64,000 bases of DNA from a virus. The notes under the pieces were generated by a model that saw only the letters and a program-made list of their open reading frames with translations, was not told where the DNA came from and did not search any database. The stretch lies in IMG/VR virus record IMGVR_UViG_3300037851_000572, positions 1 to 64,000 of that record, one strand, 5' to 3'. A program made the position numbers and the translations under genes. Numbering within the stretch: the stretch's first letter is position 1; the number at the start of each line of letters is the position of its first letter. Positions 30,642 through 53,103 of this stretch are shown here, one piece after another.

Positions 30642-31367
30642 ATGTGGCGAGAGAGCATGGGAAGAGAAGGGCTAGTCACCCGCGGCCAAGCCGCGAAGAT
30701 ACTGGGGGTATCTCCCCGCCACGTGTCCCGCCTGGCGCGTAGTGGAAAGCTGACTCGTACCTTCGAGGACGGCCAGCCCATCGGCGGAGAGGAGCTGTTC
30801 TCCGAGGAGGAGGTCAGCGCCTACGCCGAGCTGAGGGAGAAGGGTAGCAACCCCGCCGAGGTGGCGGCGATGGCACAGCAGGCCTGGGCGGCAGCCCGAG
30901 CGGCCCAGCGCAGGGTGGAGCTTCTCGAGAAGCTCCTGGGGCTGAATGTCTCCCCACTGGAGAACTCGAGGGAGGCCATCCTGGCCCTCCGCGCCCTCGC
31001 CGAGGAGGACCTCGGCAGGCACATCAACGGTGAAGCCAAGGTGAACTTCTGGGCCGACCAGCTCTTCCGTATGTGCGACATCTACATCGAGGACGTGCGG
31101 GAGCAGGGCTTCGAGGTGCCGTACGAACCCTACCTCTCCCTGTGCCACCAACTGCTCATCGCAGAGGACCACACGGACGACAACCCGGTGAACAAACTGG
31201 CGTACAAGCGCTTGCGCCTGGCGCGGGTGAAGTTTCGGGAGAGCATCTTCACCTACTACCTGCGGACCGAAGGCAAGAAGCGCGCGCTCGCCCGCTTTCC
31301 CTCCGAGTTCCAGGGACTGCACTACGACGTCATGATGCTGGCTACGACAGCTAGCTCTGGTCGATAG
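30642..31367 (+). CDS. Helix-turn-helix (MerR/excisionase-type) DNA-binding protein
   Basis: VTRGQAAKILGVSPRHVSRLARSGKL. ATG at 30642 (alternative 30657). The 3' end overlaps the TerL 3' end by 17 nt. Confidence 0.65.
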   Translation: MWRESMGREGLVTRGQAAKILGVSPRHVSRLARSGKLTRTFEDGQPIGGEELFSEEEVSAYAELREKGSNPAEVAAMAQQAWAAARAAQRRVELLEKLLGLNVSPLENSREAILALRALAEEDLGRHINGEAKVNFWADQLFRMCDIYIEDVREQGFEVPYEPYLSLCHQLLIAEDHTDDNPVNKLAYKRLRLARVKFRESIFTYYLRTEGKKRALARFPSEFQGLHYDVMMLATTASSGR

Positions 31368-34300
31368 GCCCCGGCCACTGCTTCTTGCGCCGGCCGTGCG
31401 CGTCCTCGGTATCGGGGAGGATGATGTCCGGTCGCGGGTGGTCCATCATCGACGCTAGCCAGCAGTAGAGCAGCGCGTGGAAGCTGTCATCCGGCTTGTC
31501 CACTCCGTGCTTGTACTGAATCATCCGCAGCTGCTCATTCATCTCACTGAAGATGTTGAGCATGTCCTGCCCGTGCGGCTGCAGGAACTCCTCGATGCGT
31601 GGGAACTCGCACTTGCCCTGCTTGATGGCGTTGAAGATGTCGCTCATCACCTCAGTGCGCGCCACCTTGTACCGCTGCAGCCCCTTGTCCCAGACAATCT
31701 TGCCCTTGGTGCTACGCGCCAGATACTGGAAGCGGCGCAGGCGCTGGGTACCGAACTCCTTCAGCAGCTTGTAGTTCCGGTCGAAGCCGCCACCGTAGTC
31801 GGAGCCAATGAAGCGCACGTTGAAGTAGCGGACGAGCTCGATGATTCGAGTCATCTGCACTTCGGGGTCTTCCTCCTCCCCCATAAACCGATGGGCGAAG
31901 AAGATGCGGAACTTCATGTCGATGTACGTACCGAGCACGATGACCGTGTAGGTGTGCTCACCGGTTCCGTAGTCGATTCCAGCGTAGATGTGCTGGGCGT
32001 GCCCAAGAGCTCGGTACGTCTCGAGCTCCGCCTCCTTCATGCTGAGCTGCGGGTTGCACACAGCCTTCAGCTGCCCGAGCGTCAGCGGCCGGAGGCCTGA
32101 GTCGTACGACAGCCCGAGACACTCGTTGTAGAACTTCTCCCGAGCGTAGTGCTCGTAGTTGTAGAGGATGTCGTGCTCCCAGTCCACCCAGGGCACCATG
32201 AGCTGAGGGATGCGGTAGCTCTCCCACTGTGCGCTCTGGACCATGAACGCCCACTGCGCGTCCGGGTGCATCGGGTTGATGGGGCGGTGGCACTTCTCGC
32301 ACACCAGCCCCTTCTTACCGATGTTCTTCTCCCCCAGGACGTTCCAGAACCGTCCCGTCTCCCCGCCGTGGGCATCGCAGGGAACCACCCACTCCCCCTG
32401 CGTGCTCATGTTGGCGCGGTAGTACTCGAGGTGGTTGTCCAGGCTCTTAGGGGTGCCCGCGTACACCTGCCGCTTCAGGTGCTTAGGGGAGTGGCTCAGG
32501 CACTGCTCGATGACTGGGACGTTGTCCTGCAGCACGTCCTGAAACTCGTCCATCTCGAGCATGTTCGCCGGCACACCTCGAGTACGGTCAGCGTTCAGGT
32601 ACGCGTACCGCAGAGTAATCTTCGACCAGTTGACGAACTGCTTCTCGAAGATGTTCTGACTGAGCATGCTCGTCGTGAACTTCTTCAAGACAGGACTGGT
32701 CTCTAGGGGCTCCTTGATGCGGTCGTTCGAGAAGGTCTTCGTCTGCGTCGCCGATGGGCTGACGTAGAGCACCTTGAACTGGGGGATGAGACTCATGTAG
32801 CAGAGCCCGATGTTCCCCAGCAGGGTCGAGTTGTGGGTGATGAACCCATCACAAACGAAGTTGTGCGTCCCCTCCACCTCGAAGTCGACGCAGTCCTGCT
32901 CCCCTATATCCTCAACTTTGACGACCCGGTCCCAGTACACGTCGGTGTCGAGGTGCTGGGCCAAAGACTCAACCAGGTTCTGGTCTACCCCAGGCAGCTG
33001 ACGTAGAACGCTCACGTAGCTCTCTAGCTTACCCCTGGTCAGAGGATACTTTGGCTGCTCACGTAGCCCAAACGAGCGCATGCTGTAGGTAGCGTTGCGA
33101 CCCGAGCGCTTGGTCGACCTAGACGATGTCATCCTCTTGATGACGTCGCCGACTTCTTCTGGATACGTATCCCGATTGTTGTTCTCGGACGCGTCGGGGA
33201 TATGAACACCTTCAGATTTACCCAGGCAACTAACCTCCGTTAGGAATCGACGAACTCCTTCCTGCGTCTCCACCCGTAAGATGTAGGCGTACTTGAGCTG
33301 TCCGCGCTTCTTGTAGATGTTGGGCCAGTTTCTTCGTATGCGGGAGGGTATGCCGAACTTCCAGAGCAGGGACTGAACGTCCCGGACAAGCTGCCGGGAG
33401 ATGGAGCAGTACTCCAGCGAGTACTTGCTCCTGCTGTTCTGCTTGACGTGCCCATCCGTAGACCAAAGCCGGTTCAAGAACAGGGCCGTATGCTCCCGGC
33501 ACAGACTGAACACCCAACGCGGTACAACTTTGGTAGCGGAGCGCCTGCCCCTCAGGTCGTCAGCTTCAAACCAAATCGCCACGCTACTGTTCCAGCCAAA
33601 GTGAACCGCCTTAGCCTCCGTGCCCTTCTTGTCGTAGACGCAAGACTCCACACCAAAGTCCGACAGCAGGGACAGAAACTCAGCTAACTTTGGACCTGGG
33701 AGGGATGTGAACGATAGCTTCCTCCCGAAGTGACCGTCCCCCAACATGTACGCCAACAACTTAATGCGCGCACTGCTCGCAGGTGTTGAGGAGAACTCCC
33801 CAGCCCGTCGTACGACCGCAAGACGGTCCCCTAGCCGCACCTCGCCAGCTTCCCGCCAGCTATCCCAAATCCGCATGGGGTGGGTTGTGGCCACGTCGCA
33901 CACGTGCCCCTGCCTGGTAGTAATCCGGACGCAAGGCTTTCGGTATACCTTGGACACCCAGGAGACCCTTCCAGAGGTCATTGCGTGCCCTCCCCCGGGA
34001 ACATCCAAGGTAGCGACAGCATCCCCCAAGCGAACGTCCCCGGCTAGACAGCGCGCACCATCGGACAGAAGAACGTTGCTGCTAACCACAACGGTCTTCT
34101 CCACCTGCCTCGCGCAGAATAGGAGCAGGCGCTTCGCCGGCGTGTCATAGCAGCGGACCATGTGCCGCCGCCCCTCGAACGAGAACTTGTCGATGACTAC
34201 GATGGCGCTCTCTTCACCCTCGGCATCCACGGTCTTCTCGACGCGCGGCATCCGGAACGCGTACTCCGTGAACTGCGAGGGGCGCAGCGCCGGAAGACGC

Positions 34301-34455
34301 CCCACGTCAGCGTCAGCCAGTCGCTGTACTAGCGGCTCCTCACTGGGCACTTCCCCGGGAGGGGACCACACCCTATCCTCCGCCCAGGTGTCATCCCAAT
34401 CCTCATCTTCGTAGAGGAGCTCAGCCGCCATGTTCCCCCCCGCTGCTGCTGACAT
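31351..34455 (-). CDS. terL: Terminase large subunit, interrupted by an intein
   Basis: P-loop FCARQVEK[T/S]; Walker B-like NMLEMDEFQD; nuclease-domain Asp blocks IYAGIDYGTG and FIGSDYGGG. Alternative start ATG at 34431. Confidence 0.9.
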   Translation of the reverse strand: MSAAAGGNMAAELLYEDEDWDDTWAEDRVWSPPGEVPSEEPLVQRLADADVGRLPALRPSQFTEYAFRMPRVEKTVDAEGEESAIVVIDKFSFEGRRHMVRCYDTPAKRLLLFCARQVEKTVVVSSNVLLSDGARCLAGDVRLGDAVATLDVPGGGHAMTSGRVSWVSKVYRKPCVRITTRQGHVCDVATTHPMRIWDSWREAGEVRLGDRLAVVRRAGEFSSTPASSARIKLLAYMLGDGHFGRKLSFTSLPGPKLAEFLSLLSDFGVESCVYDKKGTEAKAVHFGWNSSVAIWFEADDLRGRRSATKVVPRWVFSLCREHTALFLNRLWSTDGHVKQNSRSKYSLEYCSISRQLVRDVQSLLWKFGIPSRIRRNWPNIYKKRGQLKYAYILRVETQEGVRRFLTEVSCLGKSEGVHIPDASENNNRDTYPEEVGDVIKRMTSSRSTKRSGRNATYSMRSFGLREQPKYPLTRGKLESYVSVLRQLPGVDQNLVESLAQHLDTDVYWDRVVKVEDIGEQDCVDFEVEGTHNFVCDGFITHNSTLLGNIGLCYMSLIPQFKVLYVSPSATQTKTFSNDRIKEPLETSPVLKKFTTSMLSQNIFEKQFVNWSKITLRYAYLNADRTRGVPANMLEMDEFQDVLQDNVPVIEQCLSHSPKHLKRQVYAGTPKSLDNHLEYYRANMSTQGEWVVPCDAHGGETGRFWNVLGEKNIGKKGLVCEKCHRPINPMHPDAQWAFMVQSAQWESYRIPQLMVPWVDWEHDILYNYEHYAREKFYNECLGLSYDSGLRPLTLGQLKAVCNPQLSMKEAELETYRALGHAQHIYAGIDYGTGEHTYTVIVLGTYIDMKFRIFFAHRFMGEEEDPEVQMTRIIELVRYFNVRFIGSDYGGGFDRNYKLLKEFGTQRLRRFQYLARSTKGKIVWDKGLQRYKVARTEVMSDIFNAIKQGKCEFPRIEEFLQPHGQDMLNIFSEMNEQLRMIQYKHGVDKPDDSFHALLYCWLASMMDHPRPDIILPDTEDAHGRRKKQWPGPIDQS
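32830..34095 (-). mobile_element. Intein with LAGLIDADG domain (about 422 aa) in the TerL P-loop
   Basis: The C-terminus GFITHN|S (Asn codon 32830-32832) is unambiguous. Block B VATTHPM. LAGLIDADG motifs LLAYMLGDGHF and FLNRLWSTDGHV. The N-terminal boundary, inferred by alignment to the other three inteins, is T121 (codon 34093-34095), which is non-canonical. Confidence 0.8.
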
Positions 34456-39399: not shown

Positions 39400-40623
39400 T
39401 CAGACGAGGATGGTGGGGTTACCGGAGCTCACGACACCCGTCAGTATTTGTCCCGGGGTGACGGTGCCAGGGCCTGCCGGGGTGACTACAGCGAGGGGCA
39501 GGTCAATCATCACGCGAACAGTGGAGCCCACAGAAGCCACCGGCTTACCACCGCTGTTTAGCACCAAGCCTCCACCGCCGGTACCAAGCTCGGCGCCCTG
39601 CTTGCCCACGAGCCTGACCGTGCCCTCCGCCTCGAGGGAGACGTTCTTCCTGCAGAAGATGGTGATGTCGTCGTCGACTGTGAGGCGGAGCTTCTTCTTC
39701 ACCCGCAGGTTCACCGAGCCCTCCCAGCGAGCCATCATGCCGCCCGCGCGGTCAACGAAGATGCGCAGCTTCACATCGGCGGGGTCCGCCTTGAACTCCC
39801 CCGAGTCCGTCTCGAAGCCGTTCCTCGCCAGCGCGAGCTCGTACACCACCTGCTCCGACGTCCCTATCTCGAGCTGATTGTTGTTCGAGTCCTCCCCCGC
39901 ATCTCCCACTGGCTCCCCCGTAGGGGAGCGCACATACCCTACAGCGACACGGAGGTCAGCGTACTCGTCATTGGCGTAGACGCGGTACGTGCTCCTGCAC
40001 TCTGCCGTGGGGGCTTCGCTTCCTCGGTCTTGAATCCCCCAGTTGACGGAACCAGCCCCATTGAAGTGGTTGTAGTTCTGGCTGATGTCCGTCACCAGAT
40101 TCTGCAGCGGGATGCAGATGCGCTGCGCCAGCGGGCCCGAGCCGAACTGAGCCACGCCCCCTCGGTGCAGAATCATGAAGTTGCCGTCTCGCCCACGCGC
40201 AACGATGTCCCCGGGCTTGCCCCGCTTCCTACCGCCGGCGTAGGTGAAGTTGCTCTTCTCCGTCGTATCCTCACCCGAAGACGGCGTCTGCTGCGTGACC
40301 ATCGGCATGATGAACGCGAGCACGAAGGGAGGCGGACCGTCGGATGGGATGCAGATGAGGCACTTGGACCCCACTTCCGGAACGGCGTAGATGCCCTCCC
40401 CTTGATTGGGGTTCATGTACGGGCTCGCCACCTGAAGGTCGAGCATGGTCTTGCGGTCGAAGATGGTGGAGACGTCGACCGTCCAGTTCACCATGTTGAC
40501 GTTGAAGACGCGCGCCTCGTGGATGTAGGCGGGTACGGACCCCTCAGGCTGCACCCACCCAGAACGGCCGAAGCTCGTCCACGTGAGCGGGTTGAAGTAC
40601 GTTGTTAGTCCCTTGAGCGGCAT
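39400..40623 (-). CDS. Baseplate central spike (gpV / gp5-OB / VgrG-like)
   Basis: OB-fold pattern VFNVNMVNWTVDV...GEGIYAVPEVGSKCLICIPSDGPPPFVLAFI, then a beta-helix-like C-terminus. The ATG directly abuts the RNAP stop (TAGATG). Confidence 0.65.
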   Translation of the reverse strand: MPLKGLTTYFNPLTWTSFGRSGWVQPEGSVPAYIHEARVFNVNMVNWTVDVSTIFDRKTMLDLQVASPYMNPNQGEGIYAVPEVGSKCLICIPSDGPPPFVLAFIMPMVTQQTPSSGEDTTEKSNFTYAGGRKRGKPGDIVARGRDGNFMILHRGGVAQFGSGPLAQRICIPLQNLVTDISQNYNHFNGAGSVNWGIQDRGSEAPTAECRSTYRVYANDEYADLRVAVGYVRSPTGEPVGDAGEDSNNNQLEIGTSEQVVYELALARNGFETDSGEFKADPADVKLRIFVDRAGGMMARWEGSVNLRVKKKLRLTVDDDITIFCRKNVSLEAEGTVRLVGKQGAELGTGGGGLVLNSGGKPVASVGSTVRVMIDLPLAVVTPAGPGTVTPGQILTGVVSSGNPTILV

Positions 40624-43600
40624 CTAGTAGCTCCACGAGGGGAGGCCGGCGATGTGCGGAGGCTTGAACAGGCTCTTCTTCTTCGCCAACCCGAACTCTG
40701 CCCCGTACGCCATCCCCGGCGTGGGGTTGAGTCCGTGCAGGTCGGAGACGGCGCCCTCAGCTGCCGCGTCCGTCAGCGTCTTCGTCAACCGCTCGTGGTT
40801 GAGCTTCGCCATCCAATCCTCTTGGACGACCAGAGGCATGACGTCGATACCCTTGAGGACCGGTGTGTAGTCCGCCGGTCGCCGCCCCTGCTGAACCAGC
40901 GCCCGATTTGTGGCGCGCATCTCGGACGTAGGCTGAAACTCCCCCTTCAGCACGCCTTCCACGTCACCGGGGTGGGTCACCCTGGACACATTACCCAGTG
41001 CCCGCACCACCGTCTCGATGTGCTGGCGGCGAACGCCCTCTGGTTTGAAGATGGAGTGCAGCTCCGACGCCAGGTAGTTCTGCACCTTCTCGATGTTCCG
41101 CGTAGCTCGGTAGAGGTCGTGGGGGTTCACATGCGAACGCGTGGGGTCGCTGAGGGAGTGCCCCGCCTCCACCTTCATACCCACCACCGGGGGCGCCCAG
41201 CTGCCAACCGGTCCTACCGGAGAGAGCAGCGAACGGCCCGCGCGGTCGAATGGTACGAAGTGCTTCACGTCGTTGATGTAGACGTTGTGCCCGGTGCGCT
41301 CCGGCTCAATCTTGGTGATGGTACCTGAGGTCATCGCCAGCGCAGCCGCGTCCGGAATCTTCTTGGGCAGCAGTGTCAGCTGCTGCGTACGCTCGAAGGC
41401 GCCCAACGTCCCCGCACCACCAGTGCCCTTCACCCCACCCGAGTGGAACGCCTTGAGGGCTAGCTGCACCGAGCGCTCCCCGAGTGCCTGCGCCCCCAAG
41501 ACCCCCACGTTCGAGCCCAGGTCGTAGTACGTACCGTTCGGACTCAGCCCTGCGCACTTCTGGCACAGACCCTTCCCGTGCTCGCACTTCATCGCGGAGC
41601 GGACCACGACCTGCGCTCCCTTGTCCAAGCGGCGCATCTGCCCCACCACGTCGGGGCTGAGAACGGTGCCCGCTGGGAAGGTGCGGCCCTTCACCACAGC
41701 GTCAGCAGCTAGCTCTCGGTCGTAGACCTCCTCCTTACCGACGGGCATTCCGATGCCGCGGGAGGTACCGCAGTCGTGCCCTGTGACCACCAGGTTCATC
41801 GTGCTGTGGACCAACCGCTTGGAGAAGTAGCCCGGGTCTCGCACCTCCTGCACCTTCTGGATGGCGCCCTTCCTCGCACCGCTGGACTGAATCCAGTACC
41901 CGGCGAGGTCGAGGCCTTCGGAGTACGACTTCGTCACCGGCATCGGGATGGTGCGCCCACGCGCATCCTCCAGAAGCATGGGAGCGAGGCGCATCTGCTG
42001 GTACTGCTTCCAGCTGGGCTTGACGCCGGCGTCGAGCATCTTGAACAGGTTGTCCGACTTGGCTCCCGCCTTGGCCCGGTGCTCCTTCTCCATCTGCTCG
42101 GTGGCCTTCGTCCACTCCTCGATGGTGCGCACCTCCTTCTGCTCCGGGGTCAAGCTCCCACGACGGATGGCGTCGACACGCTTCTGCGTCTCCTGCACAA
42201 CCCGGTCCCGAACCTCACGGTCTGGACGGAAGTCCTCCAGCCCCAAGGAGTGCGTGCCCACGGGCACCACCTGCGACTGGGCGGGATTACTAGGATTGCG
42301 GAGCGTGATGTGCCCGTACGAGGCCTCGAAGCCGTAGTCCTTCAGCTTGTTGGCCGCGTCTGCGAAGTCCGCCTTGTGCTCCTTCGCGAGCTGACCGTAC
42401 AGCTCCCCCACCCCACGTGCGCTGAGCTTGAAGTCGTGGTCGTGCAACACCTTCGCCTGCATCGGCTTGGGCAGCGCGTCGGCAATCAGCACCCGACCTG
42501 GGGTGGTCTTCCCGTACCCTTCGATGTGGGCCAGCTCATCGATACGATGGGAGCCCGCCTGCACTGCCTTCATCGCATCGGCTGCGTTGGCGAAGCGCTT
42601 CTTCCCGCTGCCCGTCACCTGGGTCATCTTGTAGAGACCGAGCGCGCTGTCGAGCGTGGGGGTGAACGTCACCCTACCCGTCGCCTCGTTGAAGAGGTTG
42701 CGGGTGGGCATCATCCTGCGCGCCTCCTCCACCGCGTCGTCGCTGATGGGCACGTACATACTCATAGCGTCCCCATCGAAGTCAGCGTTGTATCCGCTGA
42801 CGACGAGCGGGTGCACCTTGATGGCCTTGCCTTTGGTGGGGCGCACGGTGAACGCCTGCACGTTGTGCTTGTGCAGAGCCGGGTCACGCTTCATCAAGAC
42901 GGGACGGTCCGCCACTGCCGCCTCGAGCGCCTTCTGCACACCAGCGTTCGTGTACGCCCCCTTCTTCGCCAGAATCTCCTGCGCCTCGAGGGGGTGCTTG
43001 GCCATCCCCAACGACACCATCTTCTGCACGACGAAGGGACGGTAGAGCGTGATGGCCTGCTCCCGAGGAACGGCCACCTCGTCCAACCCAAGCGCCGGCT
43101 CAGGGACAATGGTCGAGCGCATCGTCATGTCCTGACGACGGGACAGCAGCGTCTTCTGGAAGTAGCCCTCCTTAGGGGAGTTCCCAGAGATGAGCTGCAT
43201 GATGCCCTTGTTCTCGCCCTCCGACTCCGCCTTGGACCTGCCCACCCCAATGAGTGCCCGGAGCCCATCGTACTGGGCCCGACGCGACTCCCGGAGCTCC
43301 GCGTCGTCCACACCCAAATGCGACCGCTTCTTGTAGCCCTCCAACTGCCCGTTGTTCGCAGCGAAGTCCTTGTACAGCCCGTTGAGGTCCTCCCACCGGA
43401 CGCTGCCGTCTTGCATGACGCTCGGTGGACGCATCGCCGGGGGCAGCACGGGCACATTCCGCAGGACGTACGCCTCGTGCGGACGGATGTCCTTGGCGTG
43501 CAGCAGCCCCAGGTACTTGACCTTCTTCAGTGCCGTATCCAGCTTCTGCGTGGCCGCGCCGTGAGCGATGCCCGCTGGGATGCGCGCGTCGTCTAGCTCC

Positions 43601-46600
43601 TTCTGCGCCTTGGCTAGTTCCTTAGCCACGTCCAGCCGCTCGAGCGCGGCAGCGATAGCAGGACCGCCTGTCTCTCCCTTGCCCAGTGGGACCACCTTGC
43701 CGCGTGCATCCAGTGCGCTATCCCCACTGACAACCGCGTTGAACTGCGTCCCCGTCAGCCCGAGTACCTTCTTGATGGGCTCCTCGTAGACGGGATTCGG
43801 CATCGGCTCCGCCAGCTTGAAGTGCGACCACCGCTTGCCCCCTATCCCGCCGGTGGCTCGCTCATCGAACAGGCCGCCAGGGATAGGCTTCAGGCTACCG
43901 TCCCTGTCCAACGTGGTCGACGTCAAGCGGCTCGGCTGACGCAGCTCCCCGGCTGACATGGCAAGGATGTCCTTGTCGGTGAGGGGGGACAGCTGCAACT
44001 TGCTGCCCTTCTTCTCCACGTTGACGCCCGCCGCCCGCAGCATGTCGGTGAACTTCTGAAAGGCGAACGTCGGACGAGGAGCGGGCAGCGGCAGCCCCTG
44101 CTGGATGTTGTTCCACACCTCGTGGTGCTGACTGGGCCACTTCTTGCCCTCGGGTGCTGGGTCGGGCCCCTCACTCTTCCACGTCTGCATCTCCCGGATG
44201 TTGGCGGTGGCGCCGTGCGCCAGCAGCACGTTGATGCCGAGACTGCCGATGGACTGCCCGCTCGCCTTGCCGCCACTCGTTGGCTGCAGGTTGATGTCGT
44301 AGGTCTCCGGTGTCTCTCCACGCAGCGTCATGCCCGAGCGCGCCAACGCTTTCTTGTCGACCTGATGGTGGAGCTTCAGCATGTGCTGATACCCCACGAG
44401 CGCCTTGCCTAGCGACTTGCCCGTTGCTGGGTCGATGAGCTCCTCTTGGTCCTGAAGACCTCGCGCCGCCAGCTCCTTCTGCATGCGACCGACCTGGTCG
44501 ACCCCGTGCTCGAAGTTGTCGATGATGAAGGGCTTGCCGTCCTTCTTCGCTATCTTGGACGCGACGGTCTCCAACACCTGCCCGATGTTCATGCGACCCG
44601 GGATGCCAGACGGGTTCAGCGCTACCTGGATGCGCTCGCCGCCTTTGGTGACCGGCATCTCCTCGTCCGGCACCACCTTCGTGACGATGCCCTTGTTGCC
44701 GTGCCTGCCCGTAATCTTGTCGCCCACCTGCATGGGCTCCACGGTACGGACGTGGACGCTGACCTCTCCCCGCTTATTCCGATACACGCCCACCACTTCA
44801 CCGGCGTGGCTGCTGTCCCAGCGAAGGGACGCGTCGGTCTGCTGCCCCGACAGACTGCGCCGGATGCGGGCGATGCCAGACCGGTCGTTTATCTGAACCT
44901 GGCGCGTGTTCAGAACGAGCGGGTCGCCCGGCAGCACCTTCTGCCCGACGCGCACCACGCCATCATCCCCTAACTTCTCGTACTGCTCCTTGCGGTACGC
45001 CTCCGGGTGCTGAATCTGGAACTTCTTCGGGTTCCCTACGTCCCCCTCCTGCACCTTTAGCTGGGGCTTGTGCATGTGCACGGAGCGGAGGCTGTGCGCG
45101 GCGCTCTCGCTGATGACCACGCCGTCCTCGAAGTTGTACCCCTTGTACGGAATGTAGGCGACGGTGAGGTTCTTCCCCAGCGCCAGCGTGCCCCCGCGCG
45201 TGTAGTTGTTGTCGGCGACGTTCTGCCCCGCACTCACGCGGTCGCCGACCTTCACGGTCGGCGTGGAGTCCATCACGCTCTTCGAGTCGTTGAGCGGGAA
45301 GTTGTTGTACAGTTGCACCCTGTGCTGCTTGCCATCCTCACCCCGGATGACGACACCACGCTCCTTGTCTGCGTGCAGCACCGTCCCCGCCACCGGCGCG
45401 CTGTGCGCTGAGTGGCGCCCCACGAACTCCTCGTAGGAGCGCACGCCCTTGCCACCCGTCCCCACCTGAACCAGCGGAACATCACGGTCCTCCAGACTGA
45501 TGGCCTGCTCGAGGTGGCTCGTGGCGTAGGTGGCGCGGTTGCCCGAGTTGTTCCCCATGAACGGGATGAGGTTGGACGTCATGGAGAACGCCTGCGACGG
45601 GTGGTACATCGCGTAGTCGGCGTCCTTGAACGGTTGCTCCTCGAGCTCGTTCTTCACAGACGACACCTTCACCGTCGAAGAGACGGGACGGGGGCGCTGG
45701 TCGTCCCCCCACTTCACCTGGTCGGGGAGCACGACGCTGGAGCGCATGAACGTCCGCGGCCCGATGAGCTCCTTCTTCCCCGTCCGCAGGTTGTAGACGG
45801 GAATCATCGGCTCCTTGCCCACCTTCTTTACGCCGATGGGTAGGTGCAGAGTCACCCCCGTCTTGCTGTTCCCGAGCCACACCGGCCTCTTTCCGTTACG
45901 ACGCACGTACAGAAAGGTCCCCGGAACGGAAGCGCAGTACACGTCACCGGCGTAGTCCACGGTGTAGTAGGGAGAGTGTCGGGTTCTCGACGAAGTCTGG
46001 GAAGAACACTCTGACTTCCGAAGTAGCCGTACCTCGTACACGTCTAGGTAGCGCTCCTGCCTCTTGTCCTCGTACCTCTTGAGCGTCGTGGGATACCCCA
46101 AAGAAATGGCGAGCTGCTCCACCTCAGTAGCCAACCGAGCGGAAGTGGTGGTGTACGACGCGGAGTTCTGCTTTACCCGAGCGTGCGTGGTCGTCAGCCT
46201 GCCATCCCCCCACAGCAACGCGTCAAGAAGACGGCGACGTGCGGTCAGAGGCCACTGAAGAAAGCCAGACGGAAGCCTCTTCTCGGAAGCGGTGGTGCCA
46301 AGCTGCTGCATGTAGTGCGCTAGCTGCTTCACCCCTATGGTGTACCTGTTCCGACCCTCCTCCCTCTTCGAAACACTCCAAGAGTAGGGGAGCTGACTAA
46401 GCAACCAAACAATACGACTGCAGCAGTCCGCGTTGCAGTCGCTCTGAAATAGGTGGACGTGGTACGTGGAAGATTCCTCGTCGTAGCGGCAGTGGCCCTC
46501 GCTAACGAACCATCCCACCAACTCTGCCCACAGCTCAAAGGGCACGGAGTCAACATTGACGCTAGAGTTATTCCCCTCAACAACCGGCACGTAGAACAAC

Positions 46601-48102
46601 GGTTGCTCAACCGTCTCTAGCGGGTCGTGCGCACTCCTGAACTTTCGAGGCTTGCCGTGCATCTCCGCAGCACTGACCACCCTGTATGCACTACCCTTAT
46701 CAAAGGGGCGGCACAACATTCGGTGGTTGGGGGTAACCAGATACTCAAGCTGCGGGCGACGCAGCCCGTACATCCGTCCCTCGTACTTGTAGCGCTGTAG
46801 CTCCGTGGCGGGGTGAAACTCCAGCTTCCCCCCGATTAGACATGCGAATCGCGTGCTCTCCGTGACATGCGGCCAAAGAACCCACCCCGTCTCCGTAAAC
46901 ACCTCGGTCTGCTCGTCGAAGCAGCCTTCGGGTGTGTGGAGAGGGTCGAGGAACCCAAGGTGGCTCGGGTTGATGAGCTTCGCCTCGTCCACGATGGCAT
47001 TCTCGCTCTTGATGCCACCGGGCCCCATGATGGTCGTGGCCATGGAGGAGGAGACCATCTCCACCGGATTCAGTTGGTCTGCCGTCCTCACCGCGGCATT
47101 CTTCTTGAACGTGTCGAGGAGCGGCTTGTTGAACAACTCCGTGCGGACCACGTCGCGCGGAGAGCTAGCGGTGTTTATCTGGCGCAGCATCTTGGCCTTC
47201 AGGCTCCGCTGCACCCGCCAGTCCGTCAGCTTGTCGTAGGCGTAGTCGCCCACGCTACGCAGGTCCTTGAAGACCAGATTGTCCCGGTCATCTTCCGGAA
47301 CCTTGCCCGCCTGTACCTGCAGCATCTTCGCAGTGGCGCGGGTCAGAACGTCACCGTCGACAGCCCGAAAGGGCTTGCCCAGCGTCAGCTCCGTAGAGTC
47401 CGGGTGTAGCTCCGACCCCGCTAGCACCTCTCGAGCATAGGAGGCTGCTACCTCCCTGGACGAGGGTGCGCTCTTGCGGTCCGCCTTGTAGAAGCGCTCG
47501 AGCGCTGTGGAGGCACCGCGCGCCTGCCGGTTCGCCTCCAGCACATCCTTGCCCCAATGCTTCTCCAGAGTGTCGTCGTCGACCCCCATCGCCTTCATCA
47601 ACGGGTAGACAGGAATGGCCTTCGACTTCCCCCGCTCCATCATGAAGTGCTTCGTGGCTGGGTCGAACGTCACGTCGAAGTCGGGGCGGTTGGTGATGTT
47701 GAACCGCGTCTCGAGCTCTCCCGATTCACGACGCTTGGTGTACACCCCCGGCTTCAGCTGCCACTGGCTGTCGACTTGGTACTCCTGCCCGCCAACGATG
47801 TAGCTGTACCTGCGCGTGACGAGCGGCAGCTCGCCTACGTGCAGCTTCTGCACCACCTCTTTGCCCGTGTCCTTGTGCTTCAGCGCCAGGGTTGCGTAGA
47901 TGGGTCGGCTGAAGGTGCTCCCCTCCACCTTCGCCTTGTGCTGCCCCTCGATGTCGTCGTGCGCCCCCTTGTCAGCGGCTACCTCCAGCCCCTTCAGCAC
48001 CAAGGTGTGCTCGCGTCCCTCCACTGGAAAGTGCGCGCGGATACCCGCCAGAGCGCGCTCTTTAAGGTCCTCGAACGCCTCCTCGTGGTCCAGGTACGCC
48101 AT
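40624..48102 (-). CDS. Single-chain multisubunit-type RNA polymerase: beta-like and beta-prime-like modules fused, with an intein in beta
   Basis: Beta blocks: DPLHTPEG, NLIPFMGNNSGNRATYATSHLEQA, KGYNFEDGVVISE, GRHGNKG (44689-44709), LNPSGIPGRMNIGQVLE, MLKLHHQVDKKALARS. Beta-prime blocks: VLPPAMRP, PVLMKRDPALHKHNVQAF, NADFDGD (42769-42789), GARKGAIQKV..GYFSKRLVH. Junction near residue 1370 (about 43990). Confidence 0.9.
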   Translation of the reverse strand: MAYLDHEEAFEDLKERALAGIRAHFPVEGREHTLVLKGLEVAADKGAHDDIEGQHKAKVEGSTFSRPIYATLALKHKDTGKEVVQKLHVGELPLVTRRYSYIVGGQEYQVDSQWQLKPGVYTKRRESGELETRFNITNRPDFDVTFDPATKHFMMERGKSKAIPVYPLMKAMGVDDDTLEKHWGKDVLEANRQARGASTALERFYKADRKSAPSSREVAASYAREVLAGSELHPDSTELTLGKPFRAVDGDVLTRATAKMLQVQAGKVPEDDRDNLVFKDLRSVGDYAYDKLTDWRVQRSLKAKMLRQINTASSPRDVVRTELFNKPLLDTFKKNAAVRTADQLNPVEMVSSSMATTIMGPGGIKSENAIVDEAKLINPSHLGFLDPLHTPEGCFDEQTEVFTETGWVLWPHVTESTRFACLIGGKLEFHPATELQRYKYEGRMYGLRRPQLEYLVTPNHRMLCRPFDKGSAYRVVSAAEMHGKPRKFRSAHDPLETVEQPLFYVPVVEGNNSSVNVDSVPFELWAELVGWFVSEGHCRYDEESSTYHVHLFQSDCNADCCSRIVWLLSQLPYSWSVSKREEGRNRYTIGVKQLAHYMQQLGTTASEKRLPSGFLQWPLTARRRLLDALLWGDGRLTTTHARVKQNSASYTTTSARLATEVEQLAISLGYPTTLKRYEDKRQERYLDVYEVRLLRKSECSSQTSSRTRHSPYYTVDYAGDVYCASVPGTFLYVRRNGKRPVWLGNSKTGVTLHLPIGVKKVGKEPMIPVYNLRTGKKELIGPRTFMRSSVVLPDQVKWGDDQRPRPVSSTVKVSSVKNELEEQPFKDADYAMYHPSQAFSMTSNLIPFMGNNSGNRATYATSHLEQAISLEDRDVPLVQVGTGGKGVRSYEEFVGRHSAHSAPVAGTVLHADKERGVVIRGEDGKQHRVQLYNNFPLNDSKSVMDSTPTVKVGDRVSAGQNVADNNYTRGGTLALGKNLTVAYIPYKGYNFEDGVVISESAAHSLRSVHMHKPQLKVQEGDVGNPKKFQIQHPEAYRKEQYEKLGDDGVVRVGQKVLPGDPLVLNTRQVQINDRSGIARIRRSLSGQQTDASLRWDSSHAGEVVGVYRNKRGEVSVHVRTVEPMQVGDKITGRHGNKGIVTKVVPDEEMPVTKGGERIQVALNPSGIPGRMNIGQVLETVASKIAKKDGKPFIIDNFEHGVDQVGRMQKELAARGLQDQEELIDPATGKSLGKALVGYQHMLKLHHQVDKKALARSGMTLRGETPETYDINLQPTSGGKASGQSIGSLGINVLLAHGATANIREMQTWKSEGPDPAPEGKKWPSQHHEVWNNIQQGLPLPAPRPTFAFQKFTDMLRAAGVNVEKKGSKLQLSPLTDKDILAMSAGELRQPSRLTSTTLDRDGSLKPIPGGLFDERATGGIGGKRWSHFKLAEPMPNPVYEEPIKKVLGLTGTQFNAVVSGDSALDARGKVVPLGKGETGGPAIAAALERLDVAKELAKAQKELDDARIPAGIAHGAATQKLDTALKKVKYLGLLHAKDIRPHEAYVLRNVPVLPPAMRPPSVMQDGSVRWEDLNGLYKDFAANNGQLEGYKKRSHLGVDDAELRESRRAQYDGLRALIGVGRSKAESEGENKGIMQLISGNSPKEGYFQKTLLSRRQDMTMRSTIVPEPALGLDEVAVPREQAITLYRPFVVQKMVSLGMAKHPLEAQEILAKKGAYTNAGVQKALEAAVADRPVLMKRDPALHKHNVQAFTVRPTKGKAIKVHPLVVSGYNADFDGDAMSMYVPISDDAVEEARRMMPTRNLFNEATGRVTFTPTLDSALGLYKMTQVTGSGKKRFANAADAMKAVQAGSHRIDELAHIEGYGKTTPGRVLIADALPKPMQAKVLHDHDFKLSARGVGELYGQLAKEHKADFADAANKLKDYGFEASYGHITLRNPSNPAQSQVVPVGTHSLGLEDFRPDREVRDRVVQETQKRVDAIRRGSLTPEQKEVRTIEEWTKATEQMEKEHRAKAGAKSDNLFKMLDAGVKPSWKQYQQMRLAPMLLEDARGRTIPMPVTKSYSEGLDLAGYWIQSSGARKGAIQKVQEVRDPGYFSKRLVHSTMNLVVTGHDCGTSRGIGMPVGKEEVYDRELAADAVVKGRTFPAGTVLSPDVVGQMRRLDKGAQVVVRSAMKCEHGKGLCQKCAGLSPNGTYYDLGSNVGVLGAQALGERSVQLALKAFHSGGVKGTGGAGTLGAFERTQQLTLLPKKIPDAAALAMTSGTITKIEPERTGHNVYINDVKHFVPFDRAGRSLLSPVGPVGSWAPPVVGMKVEAGHSLSDPTRSHVNPHDLYRATRNIEKVQNYLASELHSIFKPEGVRRQHIETVVRALGNVSRVTHPGDVEGVLKGEFQPTSEMRATNRALVQQGRRPADYTPVLKGIDVMPLVVQEDWMAKLNHERLTKTLTDAAAEGAVSDLHGLNPTPGMAYGAEFGLAKKKSLFKPPHIAGLPSWSY
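45868..46923 (-). mobile_element. Intein with LAGLIDADG domain (352 aa) in the RNAP beta module
   Basis: Starts CFDEQTEVFTETG immediately after TPEG (Cys codon 46921-46923) and ends PVWLGN|S (Asn codon 45868-45870). LAGLIDADG motifs LVGWFVSEGHC and LLDALLWGDGRL. GC lower than the flanks. Confidence 0.85.
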
Positions 48103-48336: not shown

Positions 48337-48455
48337 TGTATTGGGCAGCCTTCATCGCGGGGCTGTGCAACGGCCTAGTCATCTTCATCCTGGAGACAAT
48401 CGCGCGTGCTTCTAAACCCAAGCCGCCAGCCACTCCCGGTGTGGCCGGGGACTAG
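48336..48455 (+). CDS. Possible 39-aa single-TM peptide
   Basis: GTG start overlapping the previous stop (TAGTG). VYWAAFIAGLCNGLVIFILETIA... Confidence 0.3.
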   Translation: MYWAAFIAGLCNGLVIFILETIARASKPKPPATPGVAGD

Positions 48456-48456
48456 G

Positions 48457-49017
48457 ATGCTGTCCGAGTTGTTCGGGCTGGTGGGGGTCTCCATCGAGGA
48501 CCCTCACCAACCTGACCGGCAGTGGACCATCTCTAATCTCTTCGCCCCCGTTTCCGGGAGGGCACTGGGAGGAATCCGAGCGAAGCTCGTCGACGAGCAA
48601 GGCTTCATCACGTTCGTGAACCAGCGCGACCTCGAGTTGCTACTAGACCTCGCTCGTCCGGGAGCGTGGTGCGAGTGGTCGGGGAGCCTCTATCCAGGCG
48701 TGACCTGCGCGGACGAGGGGTGGTTCGGCTTCTGCGTCGACGATGTCGACCTCGCAGACGACCTGCAAGAACGGGAGCTAGTTCTGCGACAACAGTATGG
48801 CGGAGTACTCCCGAACAACATTGAGCTCTCTCGACTCGTGCACGCTGAGCACGACCTCGATTACTCCGAGCTCCTGCTGTTGCTCTGGGACCGAGACTTC
48901 GACACCGGATACAGCCCAGACCCACGAGTGGAAACCATCAACCGCCGCTGGGTACAGGTAGAAAGGACCAAGGTCAGATGGAAAGCCTCGGCGTGCCGCA
49001 GCCCGTGGGGCCGCTGA
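48457..49017 (+). CDS. Hypothetical 186-aa protein
   Basis: Start trimmed to MLSELFGLVG. Confidence 0.55.
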   Translation: MLSELFGLVGVSIEDPHQPDRQWTISNLFAPVSGRALGGIRAKLVDEQGFITFVNQRDLELLLDLARPGAWCEWSGSLYPGVTCADEGWFGFCVDDVDLADDLQERELVLRQQYGGVLPNNIELSRLVHAEHDLDYSELLLLLWDRDFDTGYSPDPRVETINRRWVQVERTKVRWKASACRSPWGR

Positions 49018-49577
49018 ACTCGCTGTACTACTCGGGGAAGATTTGTGCTGACTGCGAAGAGGCCCTTCTTCTGGGAGAAGGCGTCGTTGTAGTGCAGGTG
49101 GTCATCCCGCAGACGACCGAAGGGCGCATCAGCTTCGCCGACTTCGAGAACCCCGACGGCTCGTACGCGTACGAGCCCTTCATCTTCCACAGCCACTGCT
49201 GGGAGGTGAACTACGAGAGATTGACGGAGGAGCTGGAGGAGCAGGCCTGCGAAGCCGTCGCGGACCCCCGCGCCTTCAGGAAGTGCAGCGCCTGCAGCAG
49301 CGGTCTGCTGCTCGGGGAACCCGTAGGTCTTGCCACCTACGGGCTCCTGTCCACCTCCAAGCGCACGCCCAACGGAGACCCCAGCATCGTGTTCGAGCGG
49401 AGCCAGGTGCAGAAGTGCCTGTGCCTATCTTGCCTCCGCACCCTGAACGAGGAGGTCATCGAGATGTGGGAGACCCTCTCCTACTCCGGTGAGTGCTCCC
49501 TCTGTACTTACGAACGACGATGGCGCACGGGGACCCCGTGTGACCACGAGGAAGAGGAAGAAGATGGCGACACTTGA
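48978..49577 (+). CDS. Cys-rich (multi-CxxC) putative zinc-binding protein
   Basis: Contains CADC, HSHC, CSAC, CLCLSC and CSLC, with an acidic tail. Confidence 0.6.
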   Translation: MESLGVPQPVGPLNSLYYSGKICADCEEALLLGEGVVVVQVVIPQTTEGRISFADFENPDGSYAYEPFIFHSHCWEVNYERLTEELEEQACEAVADPRAFRKCSACSSGLLLGEPVGLATYGLLSTSKRTPNGDPSIVFERSQVQKCLCLSCLRTLNEEVIEMWETLSYSGECSLCTYERRWRTGTPCDHEEEEEDGDT

Positions 49578-50751
49578 GCAACTCATCGTGACCGCGCTCA
49601 TGACCCCGAGGACCGACCCCCAGTCCACCACCTGCGTCTGGGGGCTCCCGGTCAACATCGTTGGGCTGTCCGGCTGTGGAAAGTCGGAGCGCGTCGTGGA
49701 GGCGTGCAGAATCCTGCAGCTCCCCTACCAGGTACTGTTCCTCGCCTCGAAGCAGCCCGAGGACATCGGTGGCGCCCCCTGCCACACCCCCGACGGCATC
49801 GTGATGGAGTGCATCCTCCCGCAGGCCAACAAGCTGATGCACGCTGGAACGGGGGTGCTGTTCATCGACGAGCTCAGCACCGCCCGTCCTGCGGTGCAGG
49901 CCGCTGCTCTGGGGCTCGTCAACGACCGGCGGGTGGGCGACCACCTGCTGCCGCCAAGGGTGCGCATCCTCTGCGCGATGAACCCGGCCGAGTACGCCGC
50001 CGGCGGCTTCACCCTCGAGGCCCCACTGGCGAACCGCATGCTGCACTTCTCTTACGAGGTGCCGACGTCAGACCAGTGGGTGGACTGGCTCATCGAGAGC
50101 ACGCCACAGTCGCTCCCCACCATCACCGGCGCGGAGCAGATGATACTCAGCGGCTGGGGCCAGCAGTGGTCCCACGTCCGTGGGCTGCTCGTGGGGTTCA
50201 TGAAGGCGAAGGGCAACCTGCTGCACATGCAGCCGAAGCCCGACGACCCCAACGCAGGAGGCCCCTGGCCCAGCCACCGCATGTGGAACTGGGCTGGTCG
50301 AGCCGTGGCCGCTGCCCGCTGCCTCAACATGCCCCCCGACCTGGACAACCAGCTCGTGCAGGGCTGTGTTGGCGAGGGCGTGATGGTGGAGTGGGCCACC
50401 TGGGTAGCCAACAACGACCTGCCGGCTCCAGAGGACATGCTCACCAAGGGGTGGAAGCCAGACCGCTCGCGTCTGGACATCACCATCGGTGCGCTCGCCT
50501 CGATGTCGCTGTGGATTAAGGGGCTGCAGGACAAAACCAAGCAGACGAACCTGCTGCCGGCGGCGTGGGAGCTCATCCAGCGGACCATCGACGAGAAGAT
50601 GCCTGACCTCGCCGTCCGGCCAGCGGCGACGCTGGTCACCGCTGGCCTGGCAAACACGCACAAGGACCCCCGAGTGAAGGAAGCGTGCAAGGAGCCCATC
50701 CGAAACTTGGGCAAGGGCGGCTTCTCCCGATTCCAAGGGGTCGCCGTATGA
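49564..50751 (+). CDS. MoxR-like AAA+ ATPase (AAA_5 type)
   Basis: Walker A GLSGCGKSE and Walker B VLFIDELS. Start at MATLEQL. Confidence 0.8.
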   Translation: MATLEQLIVTALMTPRTDPQSTTCVWGLPVNIVGLSGCGKSERVVEACRILQLPYQVLFLASKQPEDIGGAPCHTPDGIVMECILPQANKLMHAGTGVLFIDELSTARPAVQAAALGLVNDRRVGDHLLPPRVRILCAMNPAEYAAGGFTLEAPLANRMLHFSYEVPTSDQWVDWLIESTPQSLPTITGAEQMILSGWGQQWSHVRGLLVGFMKAKGNLLHMQPKPDDPNAGGPWPSHRMWNWAGRAVAAARCLNMPPDLDNQLVQGCVGEGVMVEWATWVANNDLPAPEDMLTKGWKPDRSRLDITIGALASMSLWIKGLQDKTKQTNLLPAAWELIQRTIDEKMPDLAVRPAATLVTAGLANTHKDPRVKEACKEPIRNLGKGGFSRFQGVAV

Positions 50752-52109
50752 CCGACCAGCAGGAGCTCACCCAAGAAGAGATGCAGCGGTTGACCGACCG
50801 CTGCTACGAGATGCTGGCGAAGGCCCGCCTCGAAGTACTGAGGAGAGCACCCTACTTCGGCAGCCTGCTCTACGCCCTGGTGCCCGTCATGGCACCAGGG
50901 CTCGGCACGATAGGCGTCACGTCGGACCTGCTGCTCGTCGTTGACCCCATCCGGGTGGTGAACGACCCTGAACTCGGGGCACTGGACAGCCAGGGCATAC
51001 CTCAGAAGCTGGCGGGGGCGCTGGCGCACGAGTGCATGCACCCACTACGGGACATGCAGCGCATCCACGAGCTGATGCAGATAGACCGCGAGCTCGCCAA
51101 CATCGCGGCGGACCTCCCCATCAACTACGACCTGCGGGAGGCGAAGTGGGAGCTCCCGAGCTGGGGGGTCTTCCCCGAGAAGTACAACTTCCCCGTTGGG
51201 CTCACGATGGAGGAGTACTTCGACCTGCTGCGGAAGGACCCGGAGCAGGCCAAGGCGACCACTCGCGCCATCGTAGCCGAGGCGAAGGGGCAGGACCCAG
51301 GGGGCACCAGCCCCGACGTCTGCGCTGGTCAGTGCGGCAGCGTGGCGGGGAACCCCTCCCCCAACGAGGCTGCCGCAGCGGCCGGCGCCGGCGCTCCGGG
51401 CAGGCACCAGGGCGAGGTGACCGCAGCGAAGAAGTCGTCGCTGCAGGCCGCCAAGCAGCACTTCGAGAAGGTGAACGGGTGCGGCAACGCACCCGGCTGG
51501 ATTGAGGAGCAGCTGGGCACGCTGGAGAGAAGGAAGGACCGGGACTGGGTGCGCGAGTTGAGCATCCTCGTCCGCCGGCGCAGCGGCATCATCCAGGCCG
51601 GCGGCTCCGACTTCTCCCTTCGGCGCCCGTCGAAGCGCTCCATGGACATCAGCCCCTTCATCCGCCCCGGGATGGTGGAGCAGCAGTACGAGGCCGCCAT
51701 CTACATCGACACGTCGGGGTCGATGGGGGAGGAGGAGCTCCAGTACGCGAAGAACGTCGTCTGCAACATCATGGAGCAGACGGGCGTCGACACCGTGTGG
51801 CTCGGGCAGTGCGATAGCAAGATGCACGGAGCCAAGCGCGTGCGCATCCGAGAGGTCCCCACCATGACCATGAAGGGTCGAGGTGGTACCAGCTTCATCC
51901 CCATCTTCGAGCACGTGAGGGAGCTGAAGCCCAAGCCCGACATGGTCGTCGTCATCACCGACGGGGACGGTCCCGCCCCAAAGGTGGCGCCACGTGGGCT
52001 ATGCGTCATCTGGGTCATCGTCCCCTGCGGGTACCGACGCCCGGCACCATGGGGTCACCTCATCGTGGCGTCCAACGACCACGCGCTGGCCGACCCGTAC
52101 TACAAGTAG
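50748..52109 (+). CDS. VWA-domain protein with an N-terminal HExxH metallopeptidase-like domain (DUF2201-type)
   Basis: HECMH; MIDAS-like IDTSGSM...GGTS...VITDGDG. ATGA overlap with the ATPase gene. Confidence 0.8.
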   Translation: MTDQQELTQEEMQRLTDRCYEMLAKARLEVLRRAPYFGSLLYALVPVMAPGLGTIGVTSDLLLVVDPIRVVNDPELGALDSQGIPQKLAGALAHECMHPLRDMQRIHELMQIDRELANIAADLPINYDLREAKWELPSWGVFPEKYNFPVGLTMEEYFDLLRKDPEQAKATTRAIVAEAKGQDPGGTSPDVCAGQCGSVAGNPSPNEAAAAAGAGAPGRHQGEVTAAKKSSLQAAKQHFEKVNGCGNAPGWIEEQLGTLERRKDRDWVRELSILVRRRSGIIQAGGSDFSLRRPSKRSMDISPFIRPGMVEQQYEAAIYIDTSGSMGEEELQYAKNVVCNIMEQTGVDTVWLGQCDSKMHGAKRVRIREVPTMTMKGRGGTSFIPIFEHVRELKPKPDMVVVITDGDGPAPKVAPRGLCVIWVIVPCGYRRPAPWGHLIVASNDHALADPYYK

Positions 52110-52881: not shown

Positions 52882-52983
52882 GCTATCCTCCTGTCAGAGC
52901 GACGGGCATGGTGTCCGGGGAGAGCCCGGAACGGGGTATTGCTGTTCAACCCTCATGAAACACCCGCCGCTCGCATTTTCTAG

Positions 52984-53058
52984 TGGGGACGGATGGACTT
53001 GAACCACCGCCCTCCCACGCGTTGCCGCGTAGGCGCTCTACCCCTGAGCTACATCCCC
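52984..53058 (-). tRNA. tRNA-like gene 1: canonical acceptor, D and T arms, but an 8-bp anticodon-arm hairpin capped by GCAA (no 7-nt anticodon loop)
   Basis: Hand fold: GGGGATG TA GCTC AGGGGTA GAGC G CCTAC GCGGCAACGC GTGGG AGGGC GGTGG TTCAAGT CCATC CGTCCCC A. No encoded CCA. Confidence 0.6.
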
Positions 53059-53103
53059 TGGTCGTAGGGGCGGGCGAGCCGAAGCCCACCGCATCCCCCA
53101 CGG

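Follow-up and report, generated by a model that had tools for sequence, protein, structure and literature searches.

A phage gene predicted to encode bacterial-type β and β′ RNA polymerase subunits as one intein-interrupted polypeptide

The 64,000-nucleotide stretch analyzed here (positions 1 to 64,000 of IMG/VR record IMGVR_UViG_3300037851_000572, hereafter the window; 64% GC) is part of the genome (~190 kb) of an uncultured phage. It carries an open reading frame (ORF) at 40624-48102 on the minus strand, in which the homologues of the bacterial RNA polymerase (RNAP) subunits β and β′ are joined head to tail. Our reading, to which we give a probability of roughly 0.6, is that this gene encodes a two-barrel, bacterial-type DNA-dependent RNAP of the phage, made as a single polypeptide and probably packaged and injected for early transcription.

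Results

Domain organization of the fused polymerase

The ORF begins with ATG and extends over 2492 codons plus a stop codon with no internal stop in its translation, as an earlier sequence-only reading of the window had stated, and its GC content at the three codon positions (0.63/0.43/0.84) is typical of coding sequence. The same reading had assigned the two halves to β and β′. Pfam profiles agreed with this assignment, with Rpb2 domains 2, 3, and 6 (aa 144-1256) followed by Rpb1 domains 1, 2, 3, and 5 (aa 1424-2228), and the positions it gave for GRHGNKG and NADFDGD were exact. The parts of the gene are listed below (nucleotide positions of the window; amino acid (aa) numbers of the precursor).

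40624-48102 (-): precursor ORF, in the order β N-terminal part, intein, β C-terminal part, β′
46924-48102 (-): N-extein, aa 1-393, with the β lobes and the rifampicin-pocket region (aa 336-363); C-terminal end ...LHTPEG
45868-46923 (-): putative LAGLIDADG intein, aa 394-745, 352 aa, splitting β at TPEG/S
43999-45867 (-): β C-terminal part, aa 746-1368, containing the β double-psi β-barrel
44689-44724 (-): GDKITGRHGNKG of the β double-psi β-barrel, aa 1127-1138, aligned to E. coli β 1063-1074
44689-44709 (-): GRHGNKG, aa 1132-1138
43942-44052 (-): junction, aa 1351-1387, ...FTDMLRAAGVNVEKKGSK then LQLSPLTDKDILAMSAGEL..., a direct join with no linker
43969-44025 (-): junction peptide VNVEKKGSKLQLSPLTDKD, aa 1360-1378
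40627-43998 (-): β′ module, aa 1369-2492
43846-43878 (-): GGLFDERATGG, aa 1409-1419
43804-43878 (-): loop GGLFDERATGGIGGKRWSHFKLAEP in place of the β′ Cys4 zinc ribbon, from the alignment
43246-43449 (-): β′ lid and clamp helices, present and weakly conserved within the family
42769-42789 (-): NADFDGD, aa 1772-1778, the Mg2+-binding Asp triad of the β′ double-psi β-barrel
41431-41901 (-): bridge helix (41803-41901), second zinc site (41755-41781 and 41548-41589), and trigger loop (41431-41496)

This anatomy was derived from a joint alignment of the spliced protein, 50 family members, and E. coli β and β′, in which the window protein is 27% identical to the E. coli subunits over 2022 aligned positions. 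GDK..GRHGNKG, NADFDGD, switch 2, the lid, the clamp helices, the bridge helix, the trigger loop, and the second zinc site are kept, while bSI1, bSI2, β residues 1127-1180, SI3 of β′, and the Cys4 zinc ribbon of β′ are absent. The conserved basic residues of the β barrel (K1065 and K1073 of E. coli, in GDK..GRHGNKG) are also retained. At least 80% of the family members retain NADFDGD, GDK...R...KG, the GAR.G of the bridge helix, the FH.GG of the trigger loop, and the second zinc site. As judged from this alignment, all catalytic elements are intact in the predicted spliced chain, which is compact because it has none of the inserts specific to the E. coli lineage and no β′ zinc ribbon. The clamp helices are the element on which sigma region 2 docks in bacteria. 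In the rifampicin pocket (aa 336-363, 47014-47097 (-)), H526 and R529 of E. coli are replaced by Ser and Met, respectively, and D516 is kept; because of these differences, the enzyme is predicted to be insensitive to rifampicin.

The best NCBIfam models were the fused β/β′ equivalogs PRK09603 and PRK14844, followed by rpoC (TIGR02386, 2e-132) and rpoB (PRK00405, 1e-107), and all scores were far below the curated cut-offs (493 bits versus 5372 and 450 bits versus 4632 for the fused equivalogs). PHROGs of the phiKZ type matched at 1e-28 to 1e-17 only. The claim that the sequence blocks resemble cellular RNAP much more than phiKZ-type blocks do was therefore correct, but the term near-canonical is relative at 27-28% identity to E. 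coli.

The C-terminal tail (aa 2467-2492, 40627-40704 (-)) has the pattern ...GAEFG...PH(I/L)..(L/V)P...Y, which is conserved in the family with a nearly invariant final Tyr and has no counterpart at the C terminus of E. coli β′. It could be a packaging or partner-binding signal.

The β/β′ junction and the lost zinc ribbon

The passage from β into β′ with neither stop nor linker had been placed near residue 1370, and the alignment puts the join at aa 1368/1369. The end of E. coli β (...SLGINIELEDE) aligns to ...AAGVNVEKKGSK, the last residue of which is aa 1368, and residues ~19-38 of E. coli β′ (IKIALASPDMIRSWSFGEV) align to the segment that starts at aa 1369. The first ~18 residues of β′ are missing at the junction, the peptide sequence of which is conserved throughout the family. 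In bacterial RNAP, the C terminus of β and the N terminus of β′ lie close together. In an AlphaFold2 model of aa 900-2000 (mean predicted local distance difference test (pLDDT) score 81.4; predicted template modeling score 0.64), the join forms a β-hairpin (VNVEKK / KLQLSP), and the block-mean pLDDT around it is 79-90. The top PDB matches of this junction-spanning model were bacterial β′ chains (E~1e-32), in agreement with the homology proposed from the motifs. A sequence search of the PDB also returned ordinary bacterial β′ only, with no solved fused phage enzyme among the matches.

The N-terminal zinc ribbon of β′ had been suspected to be missing. The alignment bears this out: E. coli β′ 64-88, which holds the Cys4 site, is deleted, and TGGIGGKRW is found instead (family pattern TG-G-GGxKW). 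This deletion is common to the whole family and to the cultured phages Arash and D69 described below.

An intein within the β part

The gene had been read as a plain β/β′ fusion. The single chain stood, but β is interrupted by a 352-aa intein that had not been reported. The translation at its borders reads ...LDPLHTPEG/CFDEQTEVF...VWLGN/SKTGVTLHLP..., and the class-1 intein features are Cys394 (Cys1), a block B TPNH (within aa 455-463), the terminal Asn745, and Ser746 at the +1 position. Two LAGLIDADG motifs occupy aa 524-537 and 622-636; the match to Pfam LAGLIDADG_3 is weak, and NCBIfam intein-containing models match as well. The GC content at third codon positions (0.73 in the intein versus 0.86 in the extein) indicates a foreign composition. 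Removal of the intein restores the universal β motif TPEG-x-x-G and leaves a chain of 2140 aa. In P0002, which comes from another assembly and is the closest homologue (84% identity), the intein is absent; this protein is exactly 2140 aa long and reads LHTPEGSRTGV at this site. The intein is predicted to splice out of the precursor, and because it interrupts β, the functional product would be 2140 aa rather than 2492 aa long.

Intein-like insertions in the family cluster at six or more sites, all of them inside catalytic motifs: TPEG/S, before AY.PYKGYNFED, GDKL/SGRHGNKG and neighboring positions, LLAHGA/, NADFDGD/, and FH/SGG of the trigger loop (~394, ~628, ~779-820, ~948-960, ~1426, and ~1869 in spliced-protein coordinates). 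At least one large insertion is present in 82 of the 248 full-length family proteins, and one protein of 4739 aa (P0172) has six. With up to six inteins in the catalytic motifs of one protein, the family is a rich natural set for intein biology. In three members (P0041, P0126, and P0127), the intein at the catalytic-triad site is preceded by NADFDGN, not NADFDGD, and ends with ...VWD/T instead of Asn; canonical splicing would thus yield a polymerase without the third catalytic Asp. Three further LAGLIDADG intein genes, with approximate intein boundaries, make four in the window together with the RNAP gene. The protein below is listed here for its intein; the portal and terminase genes follow with the gene neighborhood.

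24446-27739 (-): 1097-aa protein, homologue of Vibrio phage D69 VPHD69_0270, intein ~aa 178-624

Conservation of the fusion in a phage family

A word-indexed search recovered the window's own protein, from a JGI contig of 190,441 bp, and more than 120 further clusters, which were mostly full-length (52-84% identity, ~2120-2170 aa) and lay on contigs of up to ~200 kb. With a query spanning the junction, an exhaustive search yielded 150 representatives at E<1e-177, and for most of them the alignment ran through the junction in one stretch. Altogether, 272 homologues were retrieved from independent assemblies (JGI, ENA, NCBI, and Logan); 248 are full-length, and 271 cross the junction in one chain. 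Their intein-free lengths are 1935-2214 aa (median 2142), and even at 36% overall identity the junction peptide is still conserved. In public records, the family proteins are labeled 'beta-prime subunit' or are given no name.

IMG/VR holds 147 relatives on contigs of up to 226 kb, and only two contigs from metagenome-assembled genomes (one of 204 kb) carry relatives among 185,579 species-representative genomes. The fully fused layout is common in metagenomes, being shared by hundreds of related phages. No near-identical phage was detected by Megablast among 50,697 phage records, and tblastn gave distant relatives only. The phage setting of the gene, already noted in the sequence-only reading, is evident from the other genes of the window, which encode a large terminase, a portal, an HK97-fold capsid protein, a sheath-like protein, a tail spike, an endolysin, and a helicase.

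Cultured relatives with a partial fusion

The relatives found by tblastn against phage records belong to Vibrio phage D69 and Salmonella phage Arash, which are cultured myoviruses with finished genomes of ~180-187 kb. In both, an ORF of ~1525 aa aligns to aa 10-403 and ~773-1870 of the window protein, through the junction, and a separate ORF of ~606 aa aligns from aa ~1867 (Arash) or ~1951 (D69) to aa 2471.

Arash (L002): RNAP genes Gp206 and Gp216, 130093-134670 and 139441-141261
D69 (L001): RNAP genes VPHD69_0261 and VPHD69_0264, 143288-147871 and 148510-150339
42469-42525 (-) of the window: position of the Arash/D69 chain break, aa ~1865, where the window chain is continuous

Arash Gp206 is annotated as 'RNA polymerase subunit beta' and is really β plus the N-terminal half of β′; the D69 counterparts are annotated as 'hypothetical protein'. 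With 31-35% sequence identity to the window protein, the two phages have the identical linkerless junction, lack the zinc ribbon in the same way, and carry the portal gene just upstream. They differ in that β′ is broken, giving a 1525-aa chain of β and N-terminal β′ and a ~606-aa chain of C-terminal β′, whereas the window enzyme is one chain plus an intein. Since the junction and the loss of the zinc ribbon are common to Arash, D69, and the fused lineage, both predate the divergence of the two groups. Between the two RNAP genes lie nine genes (4.8 kb) in Arash and two small ORFs (0.6 kb) in D69, which suggests that DNA was inserted into a once-continuous gene. In a crude neighbor-joining analysis (1885 ungapped columns, 200 bootstraps), the identities were 28% between the window protein and E. 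coli, 31% between the window protein and Arash, and 47% between E. coli and Mycoplasma. A clade of the fully fused proteins without Arash and D69 was recovered in just 15 of the 200 bootstraps, a weak hint that the Arash-type split may be secondary.

Genomic neighborhood

The gene order portal, RNAP, 407-aa gene, 743-aa gene, 308-aa gene, and TerL is conserved in 80 related loci. Three members of this block are as follows.

53310-56636 (-): portal gene, intein ~aa 321-762, conserved upstream neighbor
39400-40623 (-): 407-aa tail central-spike (membrane-piercing) gene, conserved downstream neighbor
31351-34455 (-): large terminase gene, intein ~aa 167-545, downstream end of the conserved block

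The 407-aa gene starts at the base right after the RNAP stop codon. Its product had no Pfam or PHROG match and has 421 homologues, with 46-84% identity among the best 120 of the 421. A structural model of the protein (pLDDT 75.7) matches P2 gpV, phi92 gp138, the R2 pyocin spike, spikes of extracellular contractile injection systems (eCIS/PVC), and VgrG. The protein is accordingly predicted to be a tail spike, and the RNAP gene lies inside a virion-structural block. The 407-aa gene was also considered as an accessory subunit of the RNAP or a sigma-like factor, and this assignment was ruled out by the match of its model to membrane-piercing central spikes.

Between the portal and RNAP genes, the window has a four-gene cassette on the opposite strand (48406-52109 (+)). 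This cassette is found only in the close subclade of the window (15-17 of the 80 loci); in the other loci it is absent, and the portal gene is closer upstream of the RNAP gene. An AAA_5-type ATPase and a DUF2201 VWA-like/metallopeptidase protein, both detected in window-wide scans, may belong to the cassette. Just downstream of the portal gene are two tRNA genes, 52983-53058 (-) and 53102-53178 (-), of which one is tRNA-Val(AAC). ARAGORN gave the other a four-base anticodon (gcaa) and no amino acid; this gene may encode a frameshift-suppressor-like tRNA or be an erroneous call.

Search for partner subunits and promoters

No α, ω, or sigma homologue was found in the 40 ORFs of the window with Pfam, PHROG, and NCBIfam, as the sequence-only reading had also noted. 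A lenient scan of nine small ORFs for sigma was likewise negative, with Arash Gp10 working as the positive control. When gp1-gp17 of Arash were compared with the window by tblastn and phmmer, TerL was the only match. A search for Gp10 homologues reached Arash-like phages only, and a Gp10-based profile search of 11,909 ORFs in the 80 related loci found no sigma. Sigma-70-type promoters around the RNAP gene were not above the shuffled expectation, and no obvious shared motif was seen by eye in the intergenic regions.

Discussion

Proposed function and alternative explanations

Here, a scheme for the action of the fused enzyme is proposed. The covalent join of β and β′ would replace assembly on an α dimer, and a single-chain polymerase would need neither α nor ω. 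The RNAP gene would be co-transcribed with virion genes, namely the portal gene upstream, the spike gene abutting downstream, and the terminase gene beyond. The enzyme would be packaged in the capsid and injected with the DNA, where it would transcribe the early genes independently of the host; early transcription by the injected enzyme would be insensitive to rifampicin. One chain would assure a 1:1 stoichiometry and avoid the reassembly of subunits after passage through the tail. Packaging is probable in light of two observations, the abundance of the Arash orthologues in virion mass spectrometry and the position of the gene in the portal-spike-terminase block; the enzyme would then belong with the virion-packaged RNAPs of N4, phiKZ, and crAss-like phages (gp66). 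In purified Arash virions, Gp206 has the top spectral count and Gp216 the fifth, and the sigma-like Gp10 was detected too (PMC10585845).

The most serious alternative, which we judge less likely, is that the same enzyme stays outside the virion, like T7 RNAP or the non-virion RNAP of phiKZ, and serves middle or late transcription after the host RNAP has transcribed the early genes. Only one RNAP gene set was found in Arash and D69, as in phages that use the host RNAP first, and the virion evidence comes from Arash, not from the fully fused lineage. Non-structural enzymes may have contaminated the Arash proteome, for which high expression is another explanation put forward by its authors (PMC10585845). 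On the other hand, the gene lies between the portal and spike genes on the same strand in all 80 loci, and the RNAP stop codon abuts the spike start codon. Such a position is typical of late, virion-destined products and would be odd for a polymerase needed before the late genes. In addition, the Arash RNAP polypeptides give more spectra than the major capsid protein (PMC10585845).

A second alternative is that the protein is a catalytically dead polymerase relic with a retained structural or ejection role. Its gene lies among structural genes, and NADFDGN stands beside the intein in some family members. However, the window protein and at least 80% of the family have intact catalytic motifs and an intact second zinc site, and the inteins target exactly the catalytic motifs. 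Inteins typically target functionally constrained sites. We consider a relic improbable.

Less probable still is a cellular origin, either as bacterial DNA or as a recent capture of a fused rpoBC of the Helicobacter/Wolbachia type. The top NCBIfam models are the bacterial fused equivalogs, and the top PDB matches are bacterial β′ chains; yet the equivalog scores are only a small fraction of the cut-offs, and the identity of the window protein to E. coli and Mycoplasma is 27-28%, while these two bacteria are 47% identical to each other. The neighboring genes are phage structural genes, and the family is represented by just two contigs among the species-representative genomes searched. Finally, an artefact in which a single error, a lost stop codon or a frameshift, merged rpoB-like and rpoC-like genes, which are adjacent in cells, can in practice be excluded because the fused state recurs in 271 of the 272 independently assembled homologues, with a tight intein-free length cluster (median 2142 aa) and the one-chain junction in the finished Arash and D69 genomes.

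Several points weigh against the proposal of a packaged, active single-chain RNAP. We infer the splicing, activity, and packaging of the fully fused members, and the identity of Arash, the source of the virion data, to the window protein is low (~31-35%). Ribonucleotide reductases and ligases are among the 116 of 252 Arash proteins in the virion proteome, so that carry-over from the lysate is possible, a point also made by the authors of that work (PMC10585845). The flap-tip region of β is poorly conserved. The penultimate residue of the intein is Gly instead of the usual His of block G ('HN'); the eight same-site inteins inspected in relatives all end in GN likewise. No α, ω, or sigma homologue was detected in the 64 kb covered of a ~190-kb genome, and the enzyme may use host subunits.

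A bolder version of the proposal is put forward tentatively, as a possibility that we hold below the packaged single-chain enzyme itself. The core RNAP may be self-sufficient, without need of α or ω, loaded into the capsid and threaded through the tail, and the fusion may be an adaptation for ejection and refolding without reassembly of subunits. The two-piece enzymes of Arash and D69 would then be secondary splits of an ancestral single chain. If this is true, the family would represent the smallest near-canonical bacterial RNAP that occurs naturally as one gene.

Comparison with known systems

Phage-encoded RNAPs of the cellular type are central to debates on the origin of the transcription machinery and are potential tools. 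The architecture had been called unusual on the basis of the window. Compared with the literature, this holds: no description of a fully fused, near-canonical phage RNAP was found in the open-access literature, and the reviews of jumbo phages cover split forms and divergent single-chain forms. It does not hold for metagenomes, in which the architecture is common, and the junction was already present, unremarked, in the cultured phages Arash and D69.

In bacterial fused rpoBC of Helicobacter and Wolbachia, β is followed by β′ in one polypeptide, as in the window protein. These bacterial enzymes work with α, ω, and sigma. They are cellular proteins of ~2840-2890 aa, whereas the window protein is phage-encoded, is 2140 aa long when spliced, lacks the zinc ribbon, and scores about one tenth of the cut-offs of the bacterial equivalogs, which places it outside them.

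The two-barrel RNAPs of phiKZ and AR9 have neither α nor ω, and one set is packaged in the virion for early transcription (PMC7598289, PMC7824862). In these phages, β and β′ are each divided into two or three very divergent polypeptides; the window enzyme, encoded by a single ORF with weak PHROG matches, is a complete fusion and represents the opposite route. Both barrels are in a single polypeptide in gp66 of crAss-like phages, YonO, and the tape-measure-fused virion RNAP of P23-45, as in the window protein; packaging in the virion is reported for gp66 and the P23-45 enzyme. The crAssphage and YonO enzymes are not detected by hidden Markov models (HMMs) of cellular β and β′ (PMC7481178). These single-chain enzymes lack most of the cellular domains, whereas in the window enzyme the bacterial domain set is complete and canonically ordered.

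The mReC phage RNAPs of Weinheimer and Aylward (2020) resemble the window enzyme in that phage β and β′ are detectable by cellular COG HMMs, on Caudovirales metagenomic contigs with structural genes nearby (PMC7481178). They differ in gene layout: the rows considered from the mReC table list separate genes only, for β (1000-1487 aa) and β′ (887-1391 aa), and fusion is mentioned in the text for crAssphage only (PMC7481178). Of six metagenome identifiers with fused-type contigs, one occurs in the part of the table considered, as an unfused contig of 80.8 kb (PMC7481178). The mReC definition is based on separate β (at least 800 aa) and β′ (at least 800 aa) products that are encoded on a Caudovirales contig and branch apart from cellular RNAP, and the window has one fused gene instead. 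Identity with the published mReC clade was rejected on this layout, as judged from those table rows (PMC7481178).

The variants described so far are thus fragmented and divergent (phiKZ and AR9), single-chain and barely recognizable (crAss gp66, YonO, and P23-45), or near-canonical with separate subunits (mReC). The fused lineage fills the remaining corner, with a near-canonical core in one 2140-aa chain and no detectable α, ω, or zinc ribbon. If active alone, it would be a natural test of which parts of bacterial RNAP are dispensable and a one-gene route to a bacterial-type polymerase, and the cultured relatives with a partial fusion, Arash and D69, offer an immediate experimental handle on it.

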